Shown here piece by piece: positions 37,940-47,591 of a DNA stretch of 57,250 nucleotides. The position numbers were made by a program, and so were the translations under genes. Source of the DNA: Bifidobacterium breve. Lineage in GTDB: Bacteria > Acidobacteriota > Vicinamibacteria > Vicinamibacterales > CAVVIG01. Numbering within the stretch: position 1 is the stretch's first letter; each line of letters begins with the position of its first letter. The notes beneath the pieces are model-generated. The model was not told the DNA's origin, ran no database searches, and saw nothing but the letters and a program-made list of their open reading frames with translations. Location of the stretch: contig CALQBJ020000001.1 in the NCBI GenBank assembly GCA_943328785.2, forward strand, positions 1 to 57,250, given 5' to 3'.

Positions 37940-39664
37940 ATGAGGTCATACATTGTCTATGTGCTGGGGATCGTTGCGCTCGTCATTCTGACGAGCGCAA
38001 CCGGTTTCTACGCGGCCGAAATCGGCACCAACCAGAACCTCGACAGCTACGGCGACGCCCTCTGGTGGGCGATCGTCACTGTCACCACCGTCGGCTACGG
38101 CGACATCTTCCCTGTCACCGTTGCCGGCCGCCTGGTGGGCGCCTTGCTGATGTTCGCCGGCATCGGTGCGCTTGGCGTGTTCACCGCCTCCATCGCCGCC
38201 TACCTCATCAAGTTCGATCGCCTCGACGCCCTCCGGGTCAGGGGCATGCACGGCCACGTGGTGATCTGCGGCCTCGGCTCGACCGGTGCGCTGCTGGCCC
38301 AGGCGTTCCAGCGCGACGGCTACACGGTGCTGGCCATCGAGAAAGCCGAGGACAACTCACGCATCGGCGCAGCCCGCGAGGCGGGTGCCGTGGTGCTGAT
38401 AGGGGATGCCGCGCGGACCGAGGTATTGCGCCGGGCGCGGGTCGACCGTGCCGCGCACATCGTGATCGTCACCGGCGCCGATGCGACCAACGTGGAGATT
38501 GCCGCCGCCGCGCGAGCCCTGGTGCTCGACTCGACGGCCAGCGTGTCGTGCTCGGCGCAGATCGAAGACCCGGAACTCTGGTACGCCCTGCGTAGTTGGG
38601 ACGTCGGCACGCAGGACCGCGTACGGCTCGCGTTCTTCAATGTGGCCGAACTCGGCGCCCGCGCCCTGCTCGCCCGCTACTCCCCGTTCGCGGGAGGGAC
38701 CGACGCGCCCCGCACTCCGCCTCGCGTCCTCATCGTCGGTTCCGGTGCGCTCGCACAGCACCTGATCGGGCACATGGTGCGGCAGTGGCAGGACGTGGAC
38801 GGCGATGCCAAGCCGCCGTTGCCGATCGCCCTCGTCGATGCCGACGTCGACCGCGTTAGGGAGGATCTGTATCACCGGAACCCCGAACTGCGCACGCTCG
38901 CCGCGATCTCGGCGCATGCGATGGACCTGCGGTCGACGACCTTCCAGCGCGGTGCGTTCCTGTTCGACGATGCGGGCCACTGCGCGGTGACCCACGCTTA
39001 CGTCTGCGTCGACGAGGAAGGGCTGGCAATCTCCACCGCGCTGCTGCTGCTGAATCACCTGCGGCAGTACGGTGTGCACGTGATGGTGCGGACGAACCGC
39101 GCAGCGGGACTGGCAGCCCTACTGCGCGCCGTCGGCAATGAGGGGGCACGAGGGGCGTCGCACCTGCACGTCTTCAGCCTGCTCGAGCAGGCCTGCAGCC
39201 CGGAGTTCGTACTGCGCGGCACCAACGAGGTGCTGGCGCGAGCGCTGCACCAGGACTATCTGGCACAGGCGTCCAGAAGCCAGAGCCCATCGGCCGTTCC
39301 GTGGGATGAGTTGGCGCTCGATCTCAAGGAATCGAATCGACGGCAGGCGGACCACATCGCGACGAAGCTCGAAGTGGTGCACTGCCACATCGTGCCGCTC
39401 ACCGCGCTCGAAGGCGATGCGTTCACCTTTGCTCCGGCCGAGGTGGAGCAACTGGCCGAGATGGAGCACGAGCGCTGGGTGGCCGAACGCCGAGCGCAGG
39501 GCTGGAAGCGCGGACCTCGCGACCCGGCACTGAAGACCAATCCCAGCCTTGTTTCATGGGCCGACCTCGATGAATCGGCTCGCGACATCAACAGGAGTTC
39601 CGTGCGCCGACTGCCGTTCTTCCTGAATCGCGCGGGCTTCACCGCACACCGTTACAAAGCATGA
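37940..39664 (+). CDS. 2-TM K+ channel fused to two RCK/TrkA-N domains and a C-terminal RyR domain
   Basis: Selectivity filter 'TVGYGD' (38087-38104) between two hydrophobic helices. Rossmann motifs 'VVICGLGSTG' and 'VLIVGSGALA'. RyR-like 'LAEMEHERWVAERRAQGWKRGPRDPALKTNPSLVSWADLDESARDINRSSVRRLPFFL'. Confidence 0.85.
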   Translation: MRSYIVYVLGIVALVILTSATGFYAAEIGTNQNLDSYGDALWWAIVTVTTVGYGDIFPVTVAGRLVGALLMFAGIGALGVFTASIAAYLIKFDRLDALRVRGMHGHVVICGLGSTGALLAQAFQRDGYTVLAIEKAEDNSRIGAAREAGAVVLIGDAARTEVLRRARVDRAAHIVIVTGADATNVEIAAAARALVLDSTASVSCSAQIEDPELWYALRSWDVGTQDRVRLAFFNVAELGARALLARYSPFAGGTDAPRTPPRVLIVGSGALAQHLIGHMVRQWQDVDGDAKPPLPIALVDADVDRVREDLYHRNPELRTLAAISAHAMDLRSTTFQRGAFLFDDAGHCAVTHAYVCVDEEGLAISTALLLLNHLRQYGVHVMVRTNRAAGLAALLRAVGNEGARGASHLHVFSLLEQACSPEFVLRGTNEVLARALHQDYLAQASRSQSPSAVPWDELALDLKESNRRQADHIATKLEVVHCHIVPLTALEGDAFTFAPAEVEQLAEMEHERWVAERRAQGWKRGPRDPALKTNPSLVSWADLDESARDINRSSVRRLPFFLNRAGFTAHRYKA

Positions 39665-41559
39665 ACAGCGAACATTCGTCGTCGCCACACACCGCGCACG
39701 GCCACCGGCGTCCCAAGCGAGTCCGGCACCCAGGCACCGGCCAGATGCCTGGGCCGCTACCGCTGATCGTCGGCGTCACCGGCCATCGTGATCTGCGCCC
39801 CGAGGACACGCACGCGCTCGAAGGACTGGTGCGACGCCTCATCGAAGACGTGAAGCACGCGCATCCGCACACGCCGCTGCTGCTGCTGTCGCCACTCGCG
39901 GAAGGCAGCGACCGCCTGGTCGCGCGCGTCGCCCTCGAACTCGGTGTCCGCCTCGTGGTGCCACTGCCATTGCCGCTCGACCTTTACGAGCAGGACTTCG
40001 CCAGCGAGGCGTCGCTGGCCGAGTTCCGCCGCCTGCTCGGCCGCGCGGAAAGTTCGTACGTGCTGCCGCTGATGCGCGGCAACACCGACCAGGGAATCAG
40101 GCAGTACGGCGATCAGCGGAACCGTCAGTACGCCCAGGTCGGTGCGCTCATCGCCCGGCAGAGCCAGGTGTTCCTCGCCCTCTGGGACGGCGCGAGCGAT
40201 GCGGGCCACGACAAGGTGGGCGGCACGGCGGAAGTGGTCCGGTTCAGGCTCGAGGGCGTGCCCCCGAGCTACGAGCCGACGTCGGCCAGCCCGCTCAGCT
40301 ATTCCAGCAGCGGACGGGTGTATCACCTCGTGACGCCGCGCATCGGCCAGCCGGTGCCGCCGAAGGCGCTGGCGTCGGAGCTGCTCCTGCCCACCCGTCA
40401 GACCGCGGCGTCGTTCGATGAACGCGAGGGGTGGATGGACCGGTTCAACGAGGACGCGCTGCACTTCGACGCGCAGTTGGCACCGGCTCGCGTCACCAGC
40501 ACGTCGTACCTGCTGAACGTCAAGGAGCACGAGGTCGATGCGGCGGCGCGCTCGCTGCCCGCCTCGGCGCAGATGACCATGGAGCGCTACGCCGTCGCGG
40601 ACACCCTGGCGCTGCACTTCGCCACCTACACCAGGGCGGCGTCGCGGAAGCTGTTCCTGTGGGTGTTCGTGTCGGCGCTGTTCTTCAACCTGTTCCACTC
40701 GCTGCCGCACCCGCATATCTCAGAACATCCTTCGCTCGGTGAACGGCTGATCGCGGTTCCATGGCTCCTCCTGCTCTTCCTCGCCTCGTCCATCGTCGCC
40801 AGCTACTGGATCCATCGCGAGGCGACCGAGCAGGACTACCAGAACAAGCACCAGGATTACCGGGCGCTGGCCGAGGCGCTGCGCATCCAGTTCTTCTGGC
40901 AGGTGGCCGGCGTGCAGGGCGACGTCGCGGATCACTACCTGCGCAAGCAGCGCGGGGCGCTGGAGTGGATTCGCAACGCGCTCCGGGCCTGGGATACCGA
41001 GTCGTCGGCCAACGAGGCGCACGAAGCGGTGGAGGGCCTCCTGCCAGAGCGGCTGGACTACGTCGCCCGGAACTGGGTCTTCGAGCAGCGCAACTACTTC
41101 GCGTCGAAGGCGCGCCGTGAGCAGGCGACGCTCGAGGACGAAGAGAAGAAGATCGAGTGGCTGGTGCGGATCAGCGTGGCGATGGCGATGCTGCTCGCCG
41201 TGGTGCTGACGGTGCCACTCCTCGTGCCCATTCACGCACTCGAAGCGGTGAAGCACTGGGTCGAGGAACCGCTGACGCACGGGATCATCATGGTCGTTAT
41301 CGTGACCCTGGCGGTCGTCGCCGGCCTGCGTCACGGCTACAACCAGCAGATGGCCCACTCAGAGCATGCGAAACAGTTCGGGCGCATGAGCGAGCTGTTC
41401 GACGCGGCGCAGACGCACCTGTCGGCGCAACTGGACGCCGGGAAGCTCGAGGATGGGGCGGCGCTGCTACGCGAACTGGGTCAGGAAGCGCTGGAGGAGA
41501 ACGGCGACTGGGTACTGCTGCACCGCGAGCGTCCGCTCGAAGTGCCGCACTCGGGATGA
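39661..41559 (+). CDS. SLOG/LOG-like Rossmannoid N-domain fused to a 4-TM (SLATT-like) membrane region
   Basis: ATGA overlap with the channel stop. 'LIVGVTGHRD', 'SPLAEGSDRLVA' and 'LWDG...KVGGTAEVV' (compare LOG PGGxGTxxE). Four hydrophobic helices (LFLWVFVSALFF, LIAVPWLLLLFLASSIV, WLVRISVAMAMLLAVVLTV, GIIMVVIVTLAVVAGL). The domain call is inference. Confidence 0.6.
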   Translation: MNSEHSSSPHTAHGHRRPKRVRHPGTGQMPGPLPLIVGVTGHRDLRPEDTHALEGLVRRLIEDVKHAHPHTPLLLLSPLAEGSDRLVARVALELGVRLVVPLPLPLDLYEQDFASEASLAEFRRLLGRAESSYVLPLMRGNTDQGIRQYGDQRNRQYAQVGALIARQSQVFLALWDGASDAGHDKVGGTAEVVRFRLEGVPPSYEPTSASPLSYSSSGRVYHLVTPRIGQPVPPKALASELLLPTRQTAASFDEREGWMDRFNEDALHFDAQLAPARVTSTSYLLNVKEHEVDAAARSLPASAQMTMERYAVADTLALHFATYTRAASRKLFLWVFVSALFFNLFHSLPHPHISEHPSLGERLIAVPWLLLLFLASSIVASYWIHREATEQDYQNKHQDYRALAEALRIQFFWQVAGVQGDVADHYLRKQRGALEWIRNALRAWDTESSANEAHEAVEGLLPERLDYVARNWVFEQRNYFASKARREQATLEDEEKKIEWLVRISVAMAMLLAVVLTVPLLVPIHALEAVKHWVEEPLTHGIIMVVIVTLAVVAGLRHGYNQQMAHSEHAKQFGRMSELFDAAQTHLSAQLDAGKLEDGAALLRELGQEALEENGDWVLLHRERPLEVPHSG

Positions 41560-41592
41560 GCGGCGCGGGCGACGGCGCCCAGACTGGCGGCG

Positions 41593-42987
41593 CTAGGCCA
41601 ACGGGGTCTGCGCCGCGGCCAGCCACGCCGCCGTCACTTCCGACGCCGTGGCAAACCGGCTGTTCGCGTCGGCCAGGATGCAGCGCATGATCATCGCCGC
41701 CGCCTCGGTCCCGAGGTCGGGACGCTCCGTCGCCACGTCCGGCGGCTTGGTCATGAGCATGCGGCCAAGCAGTTGCGGGAACGACTCCGCCGGGTAGGGC
41801 GGCCGTCCCGTGGCCATGTAGTACATCAGTGCACCGATCGTGAAGACGTCGGCACGCTGGTCGGCCGGATTCCCCATCAGCAGTTCCGGCGCAACGTACG
41901 ACAACTCGTGCGGCGCCGCCTGCCCCCGCAAGGTCGCCTCGTTCATTGTCGACAGCAGATCCTGCATGCCTCCGATGCCGGCGCTCGAGATGGCGAGGTG
42001 CTCTTTCTTGCCCGGCTCCCGCACCACACGAATGATTTCCGGATGCAGCCCCGAGATGAAGCCGCCGTGCACGTGCACCGCCTCGGTCGCCTCGCTCAGT
42101 TCGCGCACGAACTGCGTCAGCTTCGGGATGGCGAGGCCGCCGTCCAGGCGAACGAGTTCGCCGAGGCTCACGCCTGCCAGCAGGTCCGTCACCACGTACA
42201 TCATGTCCGTCGTCTCGCCGAAATCGCGGACGTGGATGATGTTCGGGTGCATCACCTGCAGGGCGCGCGCCTCACGCAGGAACCTGGCACGAATGGCCTC
42301 CTTGTTGTCCTTGTCGGTCGGCCGGTAGACGCGCACCGCGACCGGACTGCCGAGCATTCGGTGTTCGCCGGCATAGACGACGCTGCCGAAGCGACCGATC
42401 GCGACCACCTTCGTGAGGTCGTAGTTGCCCACCACCAGCGGCGATTCCTTGGACGGTTCGAGCGAGGCCGGCGGAGGCGGCGGCGCGGCGGCCGCGGCTG
42501 GCGAGGGAGCGAGGGGCGCTGGCGCGTCGACGCCGTCTGGGATCAGGTCGCCCTCGATGCCCGGCCGCTTCAGGTGCGCGTTGACGCCCTGGACGAGACG
42601 CTCGAGGTGCTGGTCGATCGGCTGGAGCGTCGCGTCGAACCAGTGCTGCGAGCTGATGAAGTACTCCATCGTCCGGGTCGGCATCACGTTCTCGATGCGG
42701 ACGGGCATGAGCGACAGCCCCTTGTGGACGGCGCGCTCGACCTCGCGCTGCACCTGGACCGACTTGTTGGAGGCTTCGCTGAAGACCAGCAGCATGACGC
42801 GCGAGCCTTCGATGGCGTCGATGATCGACTCGGCCCACGGCACGCCAGGCACGATGTCGCGGGGGGCGATCCAGCACGGAATGCCGCGCTGCTCGAGACC
42901 CGCGCAGATCGCGTTCGAGACAACCGCGTCTTTCGACGCATAACTGATGAAGACCACGTGCGCCATGACGAAAGCGCTGTCGATCAT
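41593..42987 (-). CDS. TIR domain - pseudokinase fusion protein
   Basis: TIR: 'VVFISYASKD...PCWIAPRDIVPG..WAESIIDAIEGSRVMLLVFSEASNKSVQVQREVE'. Kinase-like fold with degenerate motifs: 'VAVRVY' (K to R), 'ISGLHPEII' in place of HRDLKPEN, 'ISSAG' in place of DFG, with 'YVAPE' retained. Confidence 0.8.
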   Translation of the reverse strand: MIDSAFVMAHVVFISYASKDAVVSNAICAGLEQRGIPCWIAPRDIVPGVPWAESIIDAIEGSRVMLLVFSEASNKSVQVQREVERAVHKGLSLMPVRIENVMPTRTMEYFISSQHWFDATLQPIDQHLERLVQGVNAHLKRPGIEGDLIPDGVDAPAPLAPSPAAAAAPPPPPASLEPSKESPLVVGNYDLTKVVAIGRFGSVVYAGEHRMLGSPVAVRVYRPTDKDNKEAIRARFLREARALQVMHPNIIHVRDFGETTDMMYVVTDLLAGVSLGELVRLDGGLAIPKLTQFVRELSEATEAVHVHGGFISGLHPEIIRVVREPGKKEHLAISSAGIGGMQDLLSTMNEATLRGQAAPHELSYVAPELLMGNPADQRADVFTIGALMYYMATGRPPYPAESFPQLLGRMLMTKPPDVATERPDLGTEAAAMIMRCILADANSRFATASEVTAAWLAAAQTPLA

Positions 42988-42994
42988 AGCGCAT

Positions 42995-43035
42995 CGAAAA
43001 CAAAAAAAGGCCGCCGGGGTAAACCCGGCGGCCTT
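42995..43035 (-). terminator. Rho-independent terminator of the glgX/AGE transcript
   Basis: Minus strand reads AAGGCCGCCGGG-TTTAC-CCCGGCGGCCTT followed by TTTTTGTTTTC. 12-bp stem, 31 nt after the stop at 43066. Confidence 0.7.
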
Positions 43036-43065
43036 CTCTCGGTCCTGCGTGCTGCGGGACGGCTG

Positions 43066-45291
43066 TTAGTCGACGAAAGTGAGACTTTCGCCGAATTCGG
43101 TCGCGTTCAGGGCGTCCTTGACCGCCTGGTTCGCTCCGATTACCTGAACGTCCTCATCGGTTCGCAGCTTCTGCTTGCCGAAGATGAGGGCGCGAATCGC
43201 ACCCGGGGTCAGCGTCTTCAGTTCCTTGACGCGGATGATGAGCGTCTCGGGCTGGGCGGCGATGACCTCCTGAAGCTTGGCCTGCAGCGCCTGAACCGCC
43301 ATGTGGTCGGCGTCGCCCGCCAGGGTCAGCGTCGCGACCCCCTTGTCCACTGTGGCGTGTGCGCTGAAGTGTGACAGCCCCTCGGTCGGCGCGATACGCA
43401 CGACGATCTTCACCTGGTCATCAGCCTGCGGGATGGTGACCGTGAGGTTCGCGGCGTCGAAGTCGCTGTATTCCTTGCCGTCGACCGTGACCGACTCGAT
43501 CTTGATGCTGCCCTTCGGCAGCATGTCCGGCGCGACGCGCAGGATGTTGCCCTTGAACGCGCCCGGCTTCGGCTTGAAGTGCAGATCGAGCGGCTGCTTG
43601 GTGATGAGCAGGTTCGTGTAGACCGCCGCGAGGTAGCACAGCTCGAACGAGTGGTAGCCGCTCATCGAGTGGCTGCCCTTGTTGCGTTCGGTGCCGAGCA
43701 GGAACGGCATGCCGTTGGCGAGGACGTTGAAGTAGACGGCCCCCGAATCGTGGTCGAGGAAGAACGCGCTGTAGAACGCCGACGACTCACGCGCCTGCTT
43801 CAGGTACTCCGGCTTCTTCAGCGAACCGTGGAGGATCAGGTACGCCAGGATGCCCTGTTCCTGCTGCCACCACGCCTTGCGGTCGTGGAAGGCGAAGCGG
43901 TGGATCGACTGCCCTTCCGGCAGGGCGCGTTCCACCACGTCGTACCAGCCGCCACGCTGCGGGTCGCCGCCGTGCTTCGGCATGAGGCCGGCGATCTTCT
44001 CGGCGAGCGCCACGTAGCTGTCGTCCTGCTTCGCATTCACCATGCGCATCAGGTTCCAGGCGATCTTGAGGTTGTGTCCGACGACCCCGCGGTTCTGTTG
44101 CCAGCCCCACGTCCGGTCGGCGCTCCAATCCTCGTGGAACTTCTCCTGGACGAACGCGCTGTTCTCGTAGTCCGGGAAGCGCGTGGCGATGGTGGTCGCC
44201 GTGTCGATGAGCATCTCGAGGTGCTCGGGTTCGTTCGTCGCCAGCGCCAGGTTGATCAGGTACGCCGGGGCGTGGTCACCGACCGAATTCCAGTTCTTCT
44301 TCCCGCGGTTGCGACCGAGCGACTCGGCCTTCGGGTCGAAGGTGACCGGGTCAATGTGCGAGAAGTAGCCGCCACCCTCGTAGTCGCGGTAGTAGCGGTT
44401 GAACATGTTCAGGGTGCGGTCGATGTCCTTGCGGATCTTCGGGTCGCCCGTGATGCGGTAGGTCTGCGTCGGGCCGGCCAGCGCGTAGATCTGTTCATAC
44501 GCCGGGATCGCATCCCAGTCGTCACCGAACTCCGACGAGAGCAGCTTGCGCTCGCGGACGGGGGCGCTGGAGGAGCGGCGCATGCCGGGCACGTCGGCCA
44601 TGTCCGAGTTCAGGATCTTCTTGCCCTTCGCCTCGGCGAAGTCGATGGCGTGGTACCAGTAGCAGGTGTCCTCGACCGTGTCGACCGAGCAGAAGTGTTC
44701 GCGCAGGTAGTCGCTGCCCTTTTCGGCCGATTCGAGGAAGCGCTCGTCACCGGTGAGGAGGTAGGCCGAGGCGAAGCCGAAGATCAGGCGCGAGATCGTG
44801 TCGGTCTCCTGGCGGGTCGAATCGATCTTGCGGCCGTACAGGTCGAGCGACGTGCGGTAGTTGCGGTAGTCGACCGGGCCGTCGCCGAACTGGGCGCGGA
44901 AGTAGAAATTGCCCAGTTCCTGAATCTGGCGCACCCAATAGTCGGGCCGTTCGAACACGAACTCCGTCGGGCCGCGGCCGACGAACACGAGGTGCTCCGC
45001 CTCGAGCGCCATCGGCACGTCCGGGTAGAACACGCCGTAGGAGTACAGAAAGCGGCCGACCTGCAGCATGTCGCGCATCTGCCCGGTGCAGTCGATGTAC
45101 GACTCGCCGAGATTGCGCGCCAACTCGCCGTAGCATGAGCCCGAGAAGCGAATCTGGAATTCCCGGCCATCCGACGTGGCGACGCGGAATCCGTTACGGT
45201 CGGCGTCGACGCCGGTGACGTATCCGGCCACGGTGTCCGAGAATGCGAAGCCTAGTCCTGTCGTATTCGAAACCGAGTTCTTGACGTCCAT
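43066..45291 (-). CDS. AGE-superfamily (alpha/alpha)6 epimerase/isomerase-like enzyme with C-terminal STAS domain
   Basis: 'GHNLKIAWNL' and 'WWQQEQGILAYL' are AGE-like. The last ~110 aa ('ATLTLAGDADHMAVQALQAKL...LIIRVKELKTLTPGAIRALIF...VQVIGANQAVKDAL') are STAS-like. Confidence 0.72.
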   Translation of the reverse strand: MDVKNSVSNTTGLGFAFSDTVAGYVTGVDADRNGFRVATSDGREFQIRFSGSCYGELARNLGESYIDCTGQMRDMLQVGRFLYSYGVFYPDVPMALEAEHLVFVGRGPTEFVFERPDYWVRQIQELGNFYFRAQFGDGPVDYRNYRTSLDLYGRKIDSTRQETDTISRLIFGFASAYLLTGDERFLESAEKGSDYLREHFCSVDTVEDTCYWYHAIDFAEAKGKKILNSDMADVPGMRRSSSAPVRERKLLSSEFGDDWDAIPAYEQIYALAGPTQTYRITGDPKIRKDIDRTLNMFNRYYRDYEGGGYFSHIDPVTFDPKAESLGRNRGKKNWNSVGDHAPAYLINLALATNEPEHLEMLIDTATTIATRFPDYENSAFVQEKFHEDWSADRTWGWQQNRGVVGHNLKIAWNLMRMVNAKQDDSYVALAEKIAGLMPKHGGDPQRGGWYDVVERALPEGQSIHRFAFHDRKAWWQQEQGILAYLILHGSLKKPEYLKQARESSAFYSAFFLDHDSGAVYFNVLANGMPFLLGTERNKGSHSMSGYHSFELCYLAAVYTNLLITKQPLDLHFKPKPGAFKGNILRVAPDMLPKGSIKIESVTVDGKEYSDFDAANLTVTIPQADDQVKIVVRIAPTEGLSHFSAHATVDKGVATLTLAGDADHMAVQALQAKLQEVIAAQPETLIIRVKELKTLTPGAIRALIFGKQKLRTDEDVQVIGANQAVKDALNATEFGESLTFVD

Positions 45292-45330: not shown

Positions 45331-47483
<2,153 letters not shown>

Positions 47484-47484
<1 letters not shown>

Positions 47485-47555
47485 CACTCGGGGTCTCCTA
47501 CTGTCACAGGCCTTCCAGATTCGCAGTTCTGCACGTGAAGCGTGCGTTGCGTCAT
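47484..47555 (-). CDS. Candidate 23-codon upstream ORF (MTQRTLHVQNCESGRPVTVGDPE) coupled to glgX
   Basis: ATG at 47555 with AAGGAGG 6 nt upstream. The stop TGA overlaps the glgX ATG (TGATG). Seen only by reading the sequence; there is no homology evidence. Confidence 0.3.
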
Positions 47556-47591
47556 CCAACGCCTCCTTGTGCGGAATCCCGAAGACTTTTT

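Follow-up and report, generated by a model that had tools for sequence, protein, structure and literature searches.

A predicted TIR–pseudokinase gene beside SLOG- and RyR-domain membrane proteins: a candidate Thoeris-like module in Acidobacteriota

Introduction

Thoeris systems are being catalogued rapidly, and how their TIR proteins sense a trigger is mostly obscure. Eleven types were validated in the survey of Yirmiya et al. (10.64898/2025.12.03.692087), among them type I, whose ThsA binds the cyclic ADP-ribose (cADPR) isomer 3'cADPR through a SLOG domain, type VII, in which the TIR protein ThsB works with the SLATT effector ThsH and the canonical cADPR signal, and type X, in which a TIR protein is paired with the ion-channel effector ThsK and the signal is not established; stand-alone TIRs, according to the same survey, may deplete NAD+. 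SLATT proteins have long been predicted to be nucleotide-responsive pore-formers. More recently, phage proteins with a ryanodine-receptor (RyR) domain (PF02026) were found to bind or hydrolyse 2'/3'cADPR, and a possible link to animal RyR channels was raised (PMC13232231, a preprint dated 2026-05-29). Here we examine a 57,250-nt stretch of DNA (the window: positions 1 to 57,250 of the forward strand of contig CALQBJ020000001.1, assembly GCA_943328785.2, labelled Bifidobacterium breve and placed by GTDB in the Vicinamibacterales of the Acidobacteriota), and in it a minus-strand gene, here called TIR–PK, whose product is predicted to join a TIR domain to a pseudokinase.

A Thoeris-type locus couples a TIR gene to a signal-binding domain and a toxic or membrane output, and this is what we found beside TIR–PK: the adjoining genes encode a SLOG protein with four transmembrane (TM) helices (SLOG-4TM) and a K+ channel carrying a RyR domain. 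With moderate confidence, we favour the interpretation that TIR–PK is the sensor and signal-synthase gene of a three-gene Thoeris-like module, whose new elements are best described as a pseudokinase-gated TIR and, as candidate receivers, the SLOG-4TM protein and the RyR–K+ channel. The text of the Thoeris survey contains neither 'RyR' nor 'PF02026' nor 'kinase', and its supplements hold no RyR, Pkinase or ion-channel Pfam identifiers; a literature search likewise found no link of host RyR-domain channels or of pseudokinases to TIR systems.

Results

A TIR domain joined to a kinase fold stripped of catalytic residues

The open reading frame (ORF) at 41593..42987 on the minus strand, singled out earlier by a sequence-only reading, is real: it is a 464-codon entry in the window's ORF list, and Pfam matched both of its domains. 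Residues are numbered below along this 464-aa ORF from ATG 42987, which makes the conserved start Met8. Its parts are as follows.

41593..42966, minus strand: TIR–pseudokinase coding sequence from the conserved start (orthologs starting MAHDVF, and the upstream alignment)
42595..42954, minus strand: TIR_2 domain, aa 12-131 (Pfam E 1.1e-22)
42454..42558, minus strand: disordered Pro/Ala-rich linker, aa 144-178 (predicted local distance difference test, pLDDT, <50; length varying among orthologs)
41608..42435, minus strand: pseudokinase domain, aa 185-460 (Pfam Pkinase, PknE/PknB alignment, Foldseek)

TIR_2 (PF13676) scored 81.3 bits against a cutoff of 28, and Pkinase, at aa 192-451, 74.2 bits against 31.7 (E 1.5e-20). 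The linker falls in gapped, variable columns of an alignment of 25 orthologs. An AlphaFold2 model of the protein, built from 31 orthologs, reached a mean pLDDT of 80.6. Its N-terminal domain alternates strand and helix in beta-alpha fashion (pLDDT about 90), and its C-terminal domain is bilobal, with PknB, Stk1, PknA and PknE as the top PDB matches (Foldseek E ~1e-15); kinase matches also dominate the Foldseek list of the full-length model. The architecture proposed from the letters alone, a TIR domain, a linker and a kinase fold without catalytic residues, is thus borne out by Pfam matches above cutoff for both families, by the model and by the kinase fold that Foldseek recovered in it (PknB and Stk1 at E 1e-15).

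We mapped the catalytic positions by HMMER alignment to PknE (2h34, E 5e-24) and PknB. The VAIK Lys is replaced by Arg219 (codon 42331..42333, minus strand), HRDxKxxN by I311-S312-G313-L314-H315-P316-E317-I318 (42034..42057, minus strand) and DFG by S334-S335-A336(-G337), the SSAG stretch lying at 41977..41988 on the minus strand. Consequently, the positions of the VAIK Lys, the HRD Asp, the catalytic-loop Asn and the DFG Asp are held by Arg219, Gly313, Ile318 and Ser334, and what characterizes an active Ser/Thr kinase is missing at all four, invariantly among orthologs. The same alignment shows that the alphaC Glu (Glu239), the APE motif (YVAPE) and the alphaF helix are kept, in agreement with the losses and retentions first proposed. 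Catalytic residues at shifted positions, which would have spoken against that proposal, could be ruled out by comparison with PknE: the sole DFG tripeptide (aa 255-257, 'VRDFGE') is an N-lobe motif that PknE also has beside its real DFG.

Arg219, Gly313, Leu314, Pro316, Ser334, Gly337, Glu239 and APE are invariant in 25-31 orthologs spanning 95% to 42% identity, which argues from sequence that the catalytic-site substitutions are not decay. The Gly-rich loop had been described as degraded, and here the earlier description has to be revised, since the loop is largely intact: Gly198 and Gly201 are invariant in the 25-sequence alignment and at least 90% conserved in the 31-sequence one, the first Gly alone is changed (Ala196), and many orthologs read GxGRFGS. 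Membership among the defence kinases PD-T4-6, MAD6 and PglW was rejected (catalytic residues absent, NCBIfam scores far under the cutoffs), and we read the PADLOC kinase matches (E 4e-40) as generic kinase-fold similarity. Judging from these comparisons, the architecture is that of a TIR domain with a Glu at the catalytic position fused to a true pseudokinase.

A TIR subfamily with Gln in place of Trp

The nearest solved sequence relative of the TIR domain is the oyster TIR-STING fusion 6wt6. Glu82 (codon 42742..42744) aligns with the Glu of 'SEWSKFE' in 6wt6 and Gln78 with its Trp, just as the sequence-only reading had it. A scan of the genome collection, in which full-length alignment was keyed on TIR patterns and which therefore describes a broad TIR subfamily and not orthologs, returned at least 597 loci in GTDB species representatives, with 45-60% identity over aa 8-140. 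Among the 82 aligned members, Glu82 is present in every one and Gln78 in 78, and the subfamily signature is N74-x-S76-x-Q78-[IV]-x-R-E82. Given the frequency of Gln78, the change from Trp to Gln is, on this alignment, a subfamily hallmark. The C-terminal regions vary (TPR, Sel1, SH3 (SH3_3), DUF4189, BioY or other TM segments, FGE-sulfatase, kinase), as expected, to judge by sequence, of one output domain joined to many sensors. The TIR domain is a probable NAD+-cleaving signalling enzyme.

Genes for a SLOG membrane protein and a RyR-domain K+ channel

Two plus-strand genes lie on the 3' side of TIR–PK.

39661..41559, plus strand: SLOG-4TM protein, 632 aa, convergent to TIR–PK (AlphaFold2, Foldseek, ortholog Pfam)
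37940..39664, plus strand: K+ channel–TrkA_N/RCK–RyR protein (Pfam Ion_trans_2 3e-17, TrkA_N 4e-18, RyR 4e-12)

The 632-aa protein is predicted to consist of a YpsA-like SLOG domain followed by four TM helices in two putative DUF4231/SLATT-like 2TM units. Its AlphaFold2 model (pLDDT 87.8; predicted TM-score, pTM, 0.85) has an alpha/beta domain at aa 35-245 and then a long helical region with four hydrophobic helices. A sequence and profile search of the PDB gave nothing significant with this protein, and the SLOG fold was found by the fold search alone: the top Foldseek match is B. subtilis YpsA (2nx2, E 6.5e-5, probability 1.0, target TM-score 0.62), and further matches to ShosA, DprA, LOG proteins and TRPM2/TRPM8 all belong to the SLOG superfamily. 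Its N-domain is, by its modelled structure, a SLOG fold. As for the membrane part, individual Pfam scans detected DUF4231 in 4 of 6 orthologs (best E 1e-5), and a distant relative scored 24.0 bits against a DUF4231 cutoff of 24.7; the YAcAr SLOG family appeared in 2 of the 6 orthologs at E 0.028, a weak match that we take as supportive.

The channel has the selectivity filter TVGYGD, and its C-terminal RyR domain (aa ~490-574; PF02026) scored 46.8 bits against a cutoff of 27.4 and matched Repeat12 of RyR1-3 at E ~1e-14. The channel gene comes first, and since its stop overlaps the start of the SLOG-4TM gene (ATGA), the two are probably co-transcribed. The convergent 3' ends of TIR–PK and the SLOG-4TM gene are separated by 33 nt in the window (41559..41593) and by 7 nt in L004 (11422/11430), one of the related loci that we number with the prefix L, and overlap by 4 nt in L090 (11374-11377). 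No terminator was detected between the two convergent genes, and their transcription could interfere mutually.

Linkage follows the TIR domain across phyla

At every TIR–PK locus with at least 54% identity (the window, L001-L005, L089, L090 and L095-L107), the SLOG-4TM gene lies convergent and directly downstream, with the RyR K+ channel gene beyond it where the contig allows. All of these loci share a wider synteny (GlgX, AGE–STAS, DJ-1 and glyoxalase genes), so that within this clade the adjacency has to be scored once, as one evolutionary event. Copies identical or nearly identical to the locus also occur in JGI metagenome contigs Ga0138284_1212605, Ga0114974_10000390 and Ga0114966_10000144 (L095 and L096, with 100% identity over the pseudokinase part, and L103, with 97%), which probably come from the same population as the window or a closely related one.

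Evidence from beyond this clade is independent of that synteny. The SLOG-4TM family has 1417 matches, including Verrucomicrobiae, Korobacteraceae and Blastocatellia, and at all three distant SLOG-4TM loci examined a TIR gene of another architecture adjoins: an 837-aa TIR_2/ThsB_TIR protein, a TIR_2–DUF8082 protein and a 1002-aa inverted pseudokinase–TIR protein. The last (L092:9891-12899, minus strand) has an N-terminal kinase-like domain without HRD or DFG, then TIR_2 and a terminal TM helix, and is, as its sequence indicates, a second, independent fusion of pseudokinase and TIR in inverted order. Its gene is convergent to a SLOG-4TM homolog (45% identity) that is itself preceded by a TPR-S–guanylate-cyclase gene (neighbours at L092:8001-9770 and L092:5918-7876).

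When loci were anchored on the TIR subfamily only, 25 of 80 GTDB loci had a SLOG-TM homolog, a RyR-domain ORF or both immediately beside the TIR gene, often on its strand and no more than 120 bp away; these 25 span more than 10 phyla and a Methanobacteriota metagenome-assembled genome (MAG). The SLOG-TM gene stands just downstream on the same strand in L009, L013 and L045. Stand-alone RyR proteins of 94-114 aa (Pfam E 1e-34 to 1e-37) come right after the TIR gene at L010:2671-3015, L014:2606-2908 and L076:11051-11335, RyR–TPR-S–guanylate-cyclase proteins of 762-773 aa right before it at five loci (L012:7613-9901, L019, L025, L026:7424-9745 and L035), and K+ channel–TrkA–RyR proteins next to it in L063, L067 and L072. 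As a control we used 67 loci of a kinase–pseudokinase family (Kin–PK, described below): none had a SLOG-TM or RyR neighbour, and none showed TIR linkage. The linkage thus follows the TIR and not the pseudokinase (25/80 against 0/67, Fisher p = 4e-8; p = 6e-4 for long loci only). The host-encoded RyR genes beside TIR genes suggest that cells too, and not phages alone, use RyR domains as general receivers or off-switches of TIR signals.

A portable pseudokinase

A protein search returned about 48 clusters of full-length TIR–pseudokinase orthologs, down to 40% identity and with the catalytic-site replacements invariant among them, one cluster being labelled Vicinamibacterales. The same search also returned a large family of proteins of ~570 aa, labelled 'Ser/Thr kinases', whose ~50% identity is confined to the pseudokinase part, and alignment identified these as tandem proteins in which an intact N-terminal kinase (GGGMGEVY, VAVK, HRDLKPQN, DFG, APE) is followed by a pseudokinase with the degenerate motifs of the query (GRFGS, VAIR, xSGLxPxII, IS[ST]AG, YVAPE).

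P0050-P0120 and P0241-P0245, loci L108-L174: kinase–pseudokinase (Kin–PK) tandem family, an intact Hanks kinase and then the pseudokinase

This family is likely from the same phylum as TIR–PK. When 1.84 billion representatives were searched with a profile, pseudokinases of this type turned up in two settings only, after a TIR (2 representatives) and after an active kinase (about 6), and the lower-scoring matches were ordinary kinases. Since the same degenerate module stands behind a TIR or behind an intact kinase, the pseudokinase appears from these sequences to be a portable partner of an enzymatic N-terminal domain. The one Kin–PK context examined (P0060, L094) has housekeeping neighbours and is uninformative. 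In layout, the Kin–PK tandems resemble JAKs and plant tandem kinase proteins. An Actinomycetota MAG (L011:9983-11650) carries a member of the same TIR subfamily with a kinase domain that has VAVK, HGDLKPGN and a DFL Asp, followed by a C-terminus rich in Cys, so that fusions of a TIR to a kinase that looks active exist as well.

Start codon and putative promoter element

Upstream of TIR–PK the window contains the following.

42981..42995, minus strand: conserved block GATGCGCTATGATCG with a -10-like TATGAT (42983..42988), a probable promoter element
43001..43041, minus strand: intrinsic-terminator-like hairpin and T-run, ending the upstream AGE–STAS gene (43066..45291)
43066..45291, minus strand: AGE–STAS fusion, 741 aa, an N-acylglucosamine-2-epimerase-like (AGE) domain with a C-terminal STAS domain
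45331..47559, minus strand: GlgX-type debranching enzyme, adjoining AGE–STAS

The sequence-only reading had placed the start codon, ATG 42987, against an upstream terminator, with no Shine-Dalgarno (SD) sequence at this or the alternative ATG 42966, and had proposed very low or read-through-dependent expression. The terminator and the missing SD hold: the hairpin at 43001..43041 has 18 pairs (11 GC) and a T-run (-38.8 kcal/mol, z = -6.6), hairpins with differing stems stand at the same place in L003, L004, L089 and L090, and no GGAG, GAGG or AGGA precedes either ATG. The start itself does not. In the ortholog alignment most N-termini read 'MAHDVF', corresponding to ATG 42966, and ATG 42987 sits within the TATGAT box of the GATGCGCTATGATCG block, which is conserved at the DNA level in the window, L001, L003, L004, L089 and L090 amid diverging intergenic sequence. 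Because the orthologs begin with MAHDVF, and the box is out of frame in L003 and reads TAAGAT, without an ATG, in L004, the real start is most likely ATG 42966.

The hexamer TA[T/A]GAT lies 8-16 nt 5' of the conserved start, and TATGAT occurs only 3 times in the 57-kb window. The block is a probable -10-like promoter element giving a leader of ~1-9 nt, and such a very short leader from the gene's own promoter would account for the missing SD. A sigma-70 scan found no full -35/-10 promoter, and there is no conserved -35 element. L001, a relative with 90% identity, has an insertion of three minus-strand genes that parts AGE–STAS from TIR–PK (L001:7590-9665); their products are an outer-membrane beta-barrel protein, a protein of 266 aa and one of 174 aa that matches APCDDC weakly. 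L001 keeps the box though its upstream neighbour is divergent and the terminator absent, and with a conserved -10-like box of its own, TIR–PK does not depend on read-through from AGE–STAS. Low translation, the other half of the proposal, stays plausible, since the orthologs also lack an SD and two start with GTG or TTG: an SD core precedes 37 of 62 gene calls in the related loci and is absent at TIR–PK in the four orthologs checked, among which are those two starts. The AGE–STAS/GlgX pair lies upstream of TIR–PK in all close relatives; we rejected an operon or functional link with it, for which synteny alone speaks and against which stand the three intervening genes of L001.

Discussion

The domain identities, the losses and retentions of residues, their conservation and the linkage of the genes are directly supported by the comparisons above; the enzymatic activity, the nature of the signal, its receiver, the trigger and an anti-phage as opposed to a physiological role are what we infer. 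In the mechanism we propose, the pseudokinase would be unable to transfer phosphate and would act as a regulatory or sensor domain that keeps the TIR inactive. Binding of a ligand or partner, phosphorylation or dimerisation through the surfaces of the kinase fold would be the trigger, upon which the TIR domains could self-associate and, by means of Glu82, turn NAD+ into a signal derived from ADP-ribose, for instance a cADPR isomer or something similar. The signal would be read by the SLOG domain of the 632-aa protein, by the RyR domain of the TrkA/RCK K+ channel or by both, and the resulting ion flux and membrane depolarisation might end in growth arrest or abortive infection, or in a stress response. 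We lean slightly towards a role in immunity or stress over a physiological one. That a pseudokinase regulates the TIR had been suggested before, and the suggestion fits the invariant degenerate residues, the kinase-linked paralogs and the independent pseudokinase+TIR fusion.

Several observations weigh against the three-gene module. The 632-aa protein of the window gave no Pfam match at E ≤0.01, and its SLATT assignment therefore rests on orthologs and the model. The clade of at least 54% identity is one vertically inherited syntenic block (GlgX, AGE–STAS, TIR–PK, SLOG-TM, channel), and the surroundings of the locus are those of a core genome, free of a GC anomaly and of tRNA, mobile or defence genes, which is atypical for defence islands; a horizontally acquired island was rejected for want of a GC shift and a tRNA. 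TIR–PK is convergent to the effector operon and hence outside its transcript. In the motif S-x-W-x-x-x-E, the predicted NAD+-cleaving TIR has Gln for Trp, and the model offers no confident interface between TIR and pseudokinase (pTM 0.56). Finally, the ~43%-identity clade of TIR–PK lacks SLOG-TM and RyR neighbours, and one of its members apparently stands alone; evidently, TIR–PK can work in other contexts too.

At two loci of that ~43% clade (L006:4210-11419 and L088:4159-11458), TIR–PK comes fourth in a row of genes on one strand, after genes for a TIR_2+DUF4062 protein (505 aa), an nSTAND1 NTPase with TPRs (979 aa) and a 376-aa protein without a Pfam match. DUF4062 has recently been reported to be a TIR-like NADase. 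The arrangement suggests a conflict system of the STAND type, in which two or three domains are TIR-like.

The vertical inheritance of the block also accommodates a related reading of the same genes, which we entertain tentatively: a pathway in which the TIR makes a cADPR-type nucleotide that opens a RyR-gated ion channel, in parallel with a SLOG-gated membrane protein and with the pseudokinase as the switch, would serve physiological control of K+ flux or membrane potential rather than, or besides, anti-phage suicide.

A self-contained abortive-infection or toxin enzyme, in which the pseudokinase senses, the TIR depletes NAD+ and the neighbours form an unrelated operon, is the main rival but in our view unlikely. 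NAD+ depletion is known for TIR effectors in several systems, and the separate transcription of the convergent TIR–PK gene, the neighbourless ~43% clade with its apparently solitary member and the weak translation signals of all orthologs checked, as for a toxic protein, would suit such an enzyme. These features must be set against the recurrence of SLOG-TM and RyR genes beside unrelated TIR architectures across phyla, including same-strand operons and the inverted pseudokinase–TIR, and against the fact that SLOG and RyR are established or demonstrated binders of ADPR-type signals. Because the SLOG-4TM and RyR K+ channel genes adjoin, the probable role of the TIR shifts from NAD+ depletion to signal production. 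The self-contained toxic effector of the sequence-only reading accordingly survives in part, as a predicted TIR enzyme with its pseudokinase; its self-containment becomes unlikely, the neighbouring genes having been missed.

The TIR could also be a non-enzymatic adaptor, making protein–protein contacts while the pseudokinase serves as a scaffold or docking partner in Hanks-kinase signalling, for instance with Kin–PK, and the gene order would reflect lineage synteny only. Over its length the pseudokinase shares ~50% identity with the C-terminal domain found in the Kin–PK family, likely of the same phylum, PknB-like kinases are regulated by N-lobe dimerisation, and the Gln in place of the Trp of the S-x-W motif and the housekeeping context of the locus would both agree with such a role. 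We nevertheless regard it as improbable: Glu82 and the nearby motif do not vary among the 82 of 82 members, as is typical of an active site, genes for nucleotide-receiver domains are linked to the TIR subfamily, and the 67 Kin–PK loci have no linkage to TIR, SLOG-TM or RyR. As for a kinase fold that is not dead but performs a non-canonical reaction (AMPylation or nucleotidyl transfer of the SelO or SidJ type) that uses or modifies the TIR product, G198/G201, Arg219, Glu239 and the rigidly conserved 'xSGLxPE' loop suggest maintenance of the pocket, and catalytic pseudokinases have published precedents, but Gly, Ile/Met and Ser occupy the places of the HRD Asp, the catalytic-loop Asn and the DFG Asp, the alignments have no invariant acidic residue nearby to compensate, and we give it very little credence.

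If the three-gene module is the right interpretation, the fusion of the TIR to a conserved pseudokinase provides a well-defined sensor domain that lends itself to study and to direct comparison with its kinase-linked paralogs, in parallel to the pseudokinases employed by plant and animal immunity. The host RyR domain on a K+ channel comes to light weeks to months after the recognition of cADPR by phage RyR proteins (PMC13232231). Once confirmed, the module would give a simple bacterial system in which to ask whether RyR-type domains gate channels upon cADPR-like molecules, and would widen the range of Thoeris-like signalling to include Acidobacteriota and core-genome settings that may be non-immune. 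Should the physiological pathway be true, it would supply a receiver function for host-encoded RyR domains and a prokaryotic counterpart, possibly a forerunner, of the long-debated cADPR–ryanodine-receptor axis of animals.

Comparison with known systems

Among the Thoeris types, the locus is like type VII in that a TIR gene lies beside a gene for a membrane protein, here tentatively assigned to the SLATT/DUF4231 kind, that would breach or gate the membrane once it binds a nucleotide made by the TIR. Here, however, that protein is 632 aa long, begins with a YpsA-like SLOG domain and has two 2TM units (ThsH being compared by description only), the TIR carries a pseudokinase, the genes are convergent and do not form a two-gene operon, and the setting is core-genome. 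With type X it shares the linkage of a TIR gene to an ion-channel gene, but here the channel is of the K+ type (TVGYGD), carries TrkA/RCK and C-terminal RyR domains and is accompanied by a second effector-like protein (ThsK, too, compared by description only). The predicted use of a SLOG domain as receiver of a TIR-made cADPR isomer recalls type I ThsA, whereas the output is a four-TM domain and not the SIR2 NADase of that SIR2–SLOG protein, and the SLOG fold is closest to YpsA.

The phage RyDEP proteins belong to the same Pfam family, PF02026, as the channel's RyR domain and show that a prokaryotic-type RyR domain recognises 2'/3'cADPR (PMC13232231). They are small viral glycosidases or sponges that turn signalling off, in contrast to the RyR domain found here, which is host-encoded and fused to a K+ channel.

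The pseudokinase invites comparison with tandem kinase–pseudokinases (WTK3/Sr62, JAK JH2–JH1 and Kin–PK), in which a dead kinase fold serves as the regulatory or sensing partner of an output enzyme in the same polypeptide; the output here would be a TIR and not a kinase, nothing points to the pseudokinase being a decoy for pathogen effectors, and the plant and JAK parallel is one of analogy, not homology. In SARM1 (ARM–SAM–TIR), a TIR NADase is restrained by a non-catalytic domain of the same protein. The likeness of TIR–PK to SARM1 is conceptual only, the regulatory fold being a different one and a SAM oligomerisation module being absent, and it lies in the idea of a TIR enzyme held in check by its own partner domain.

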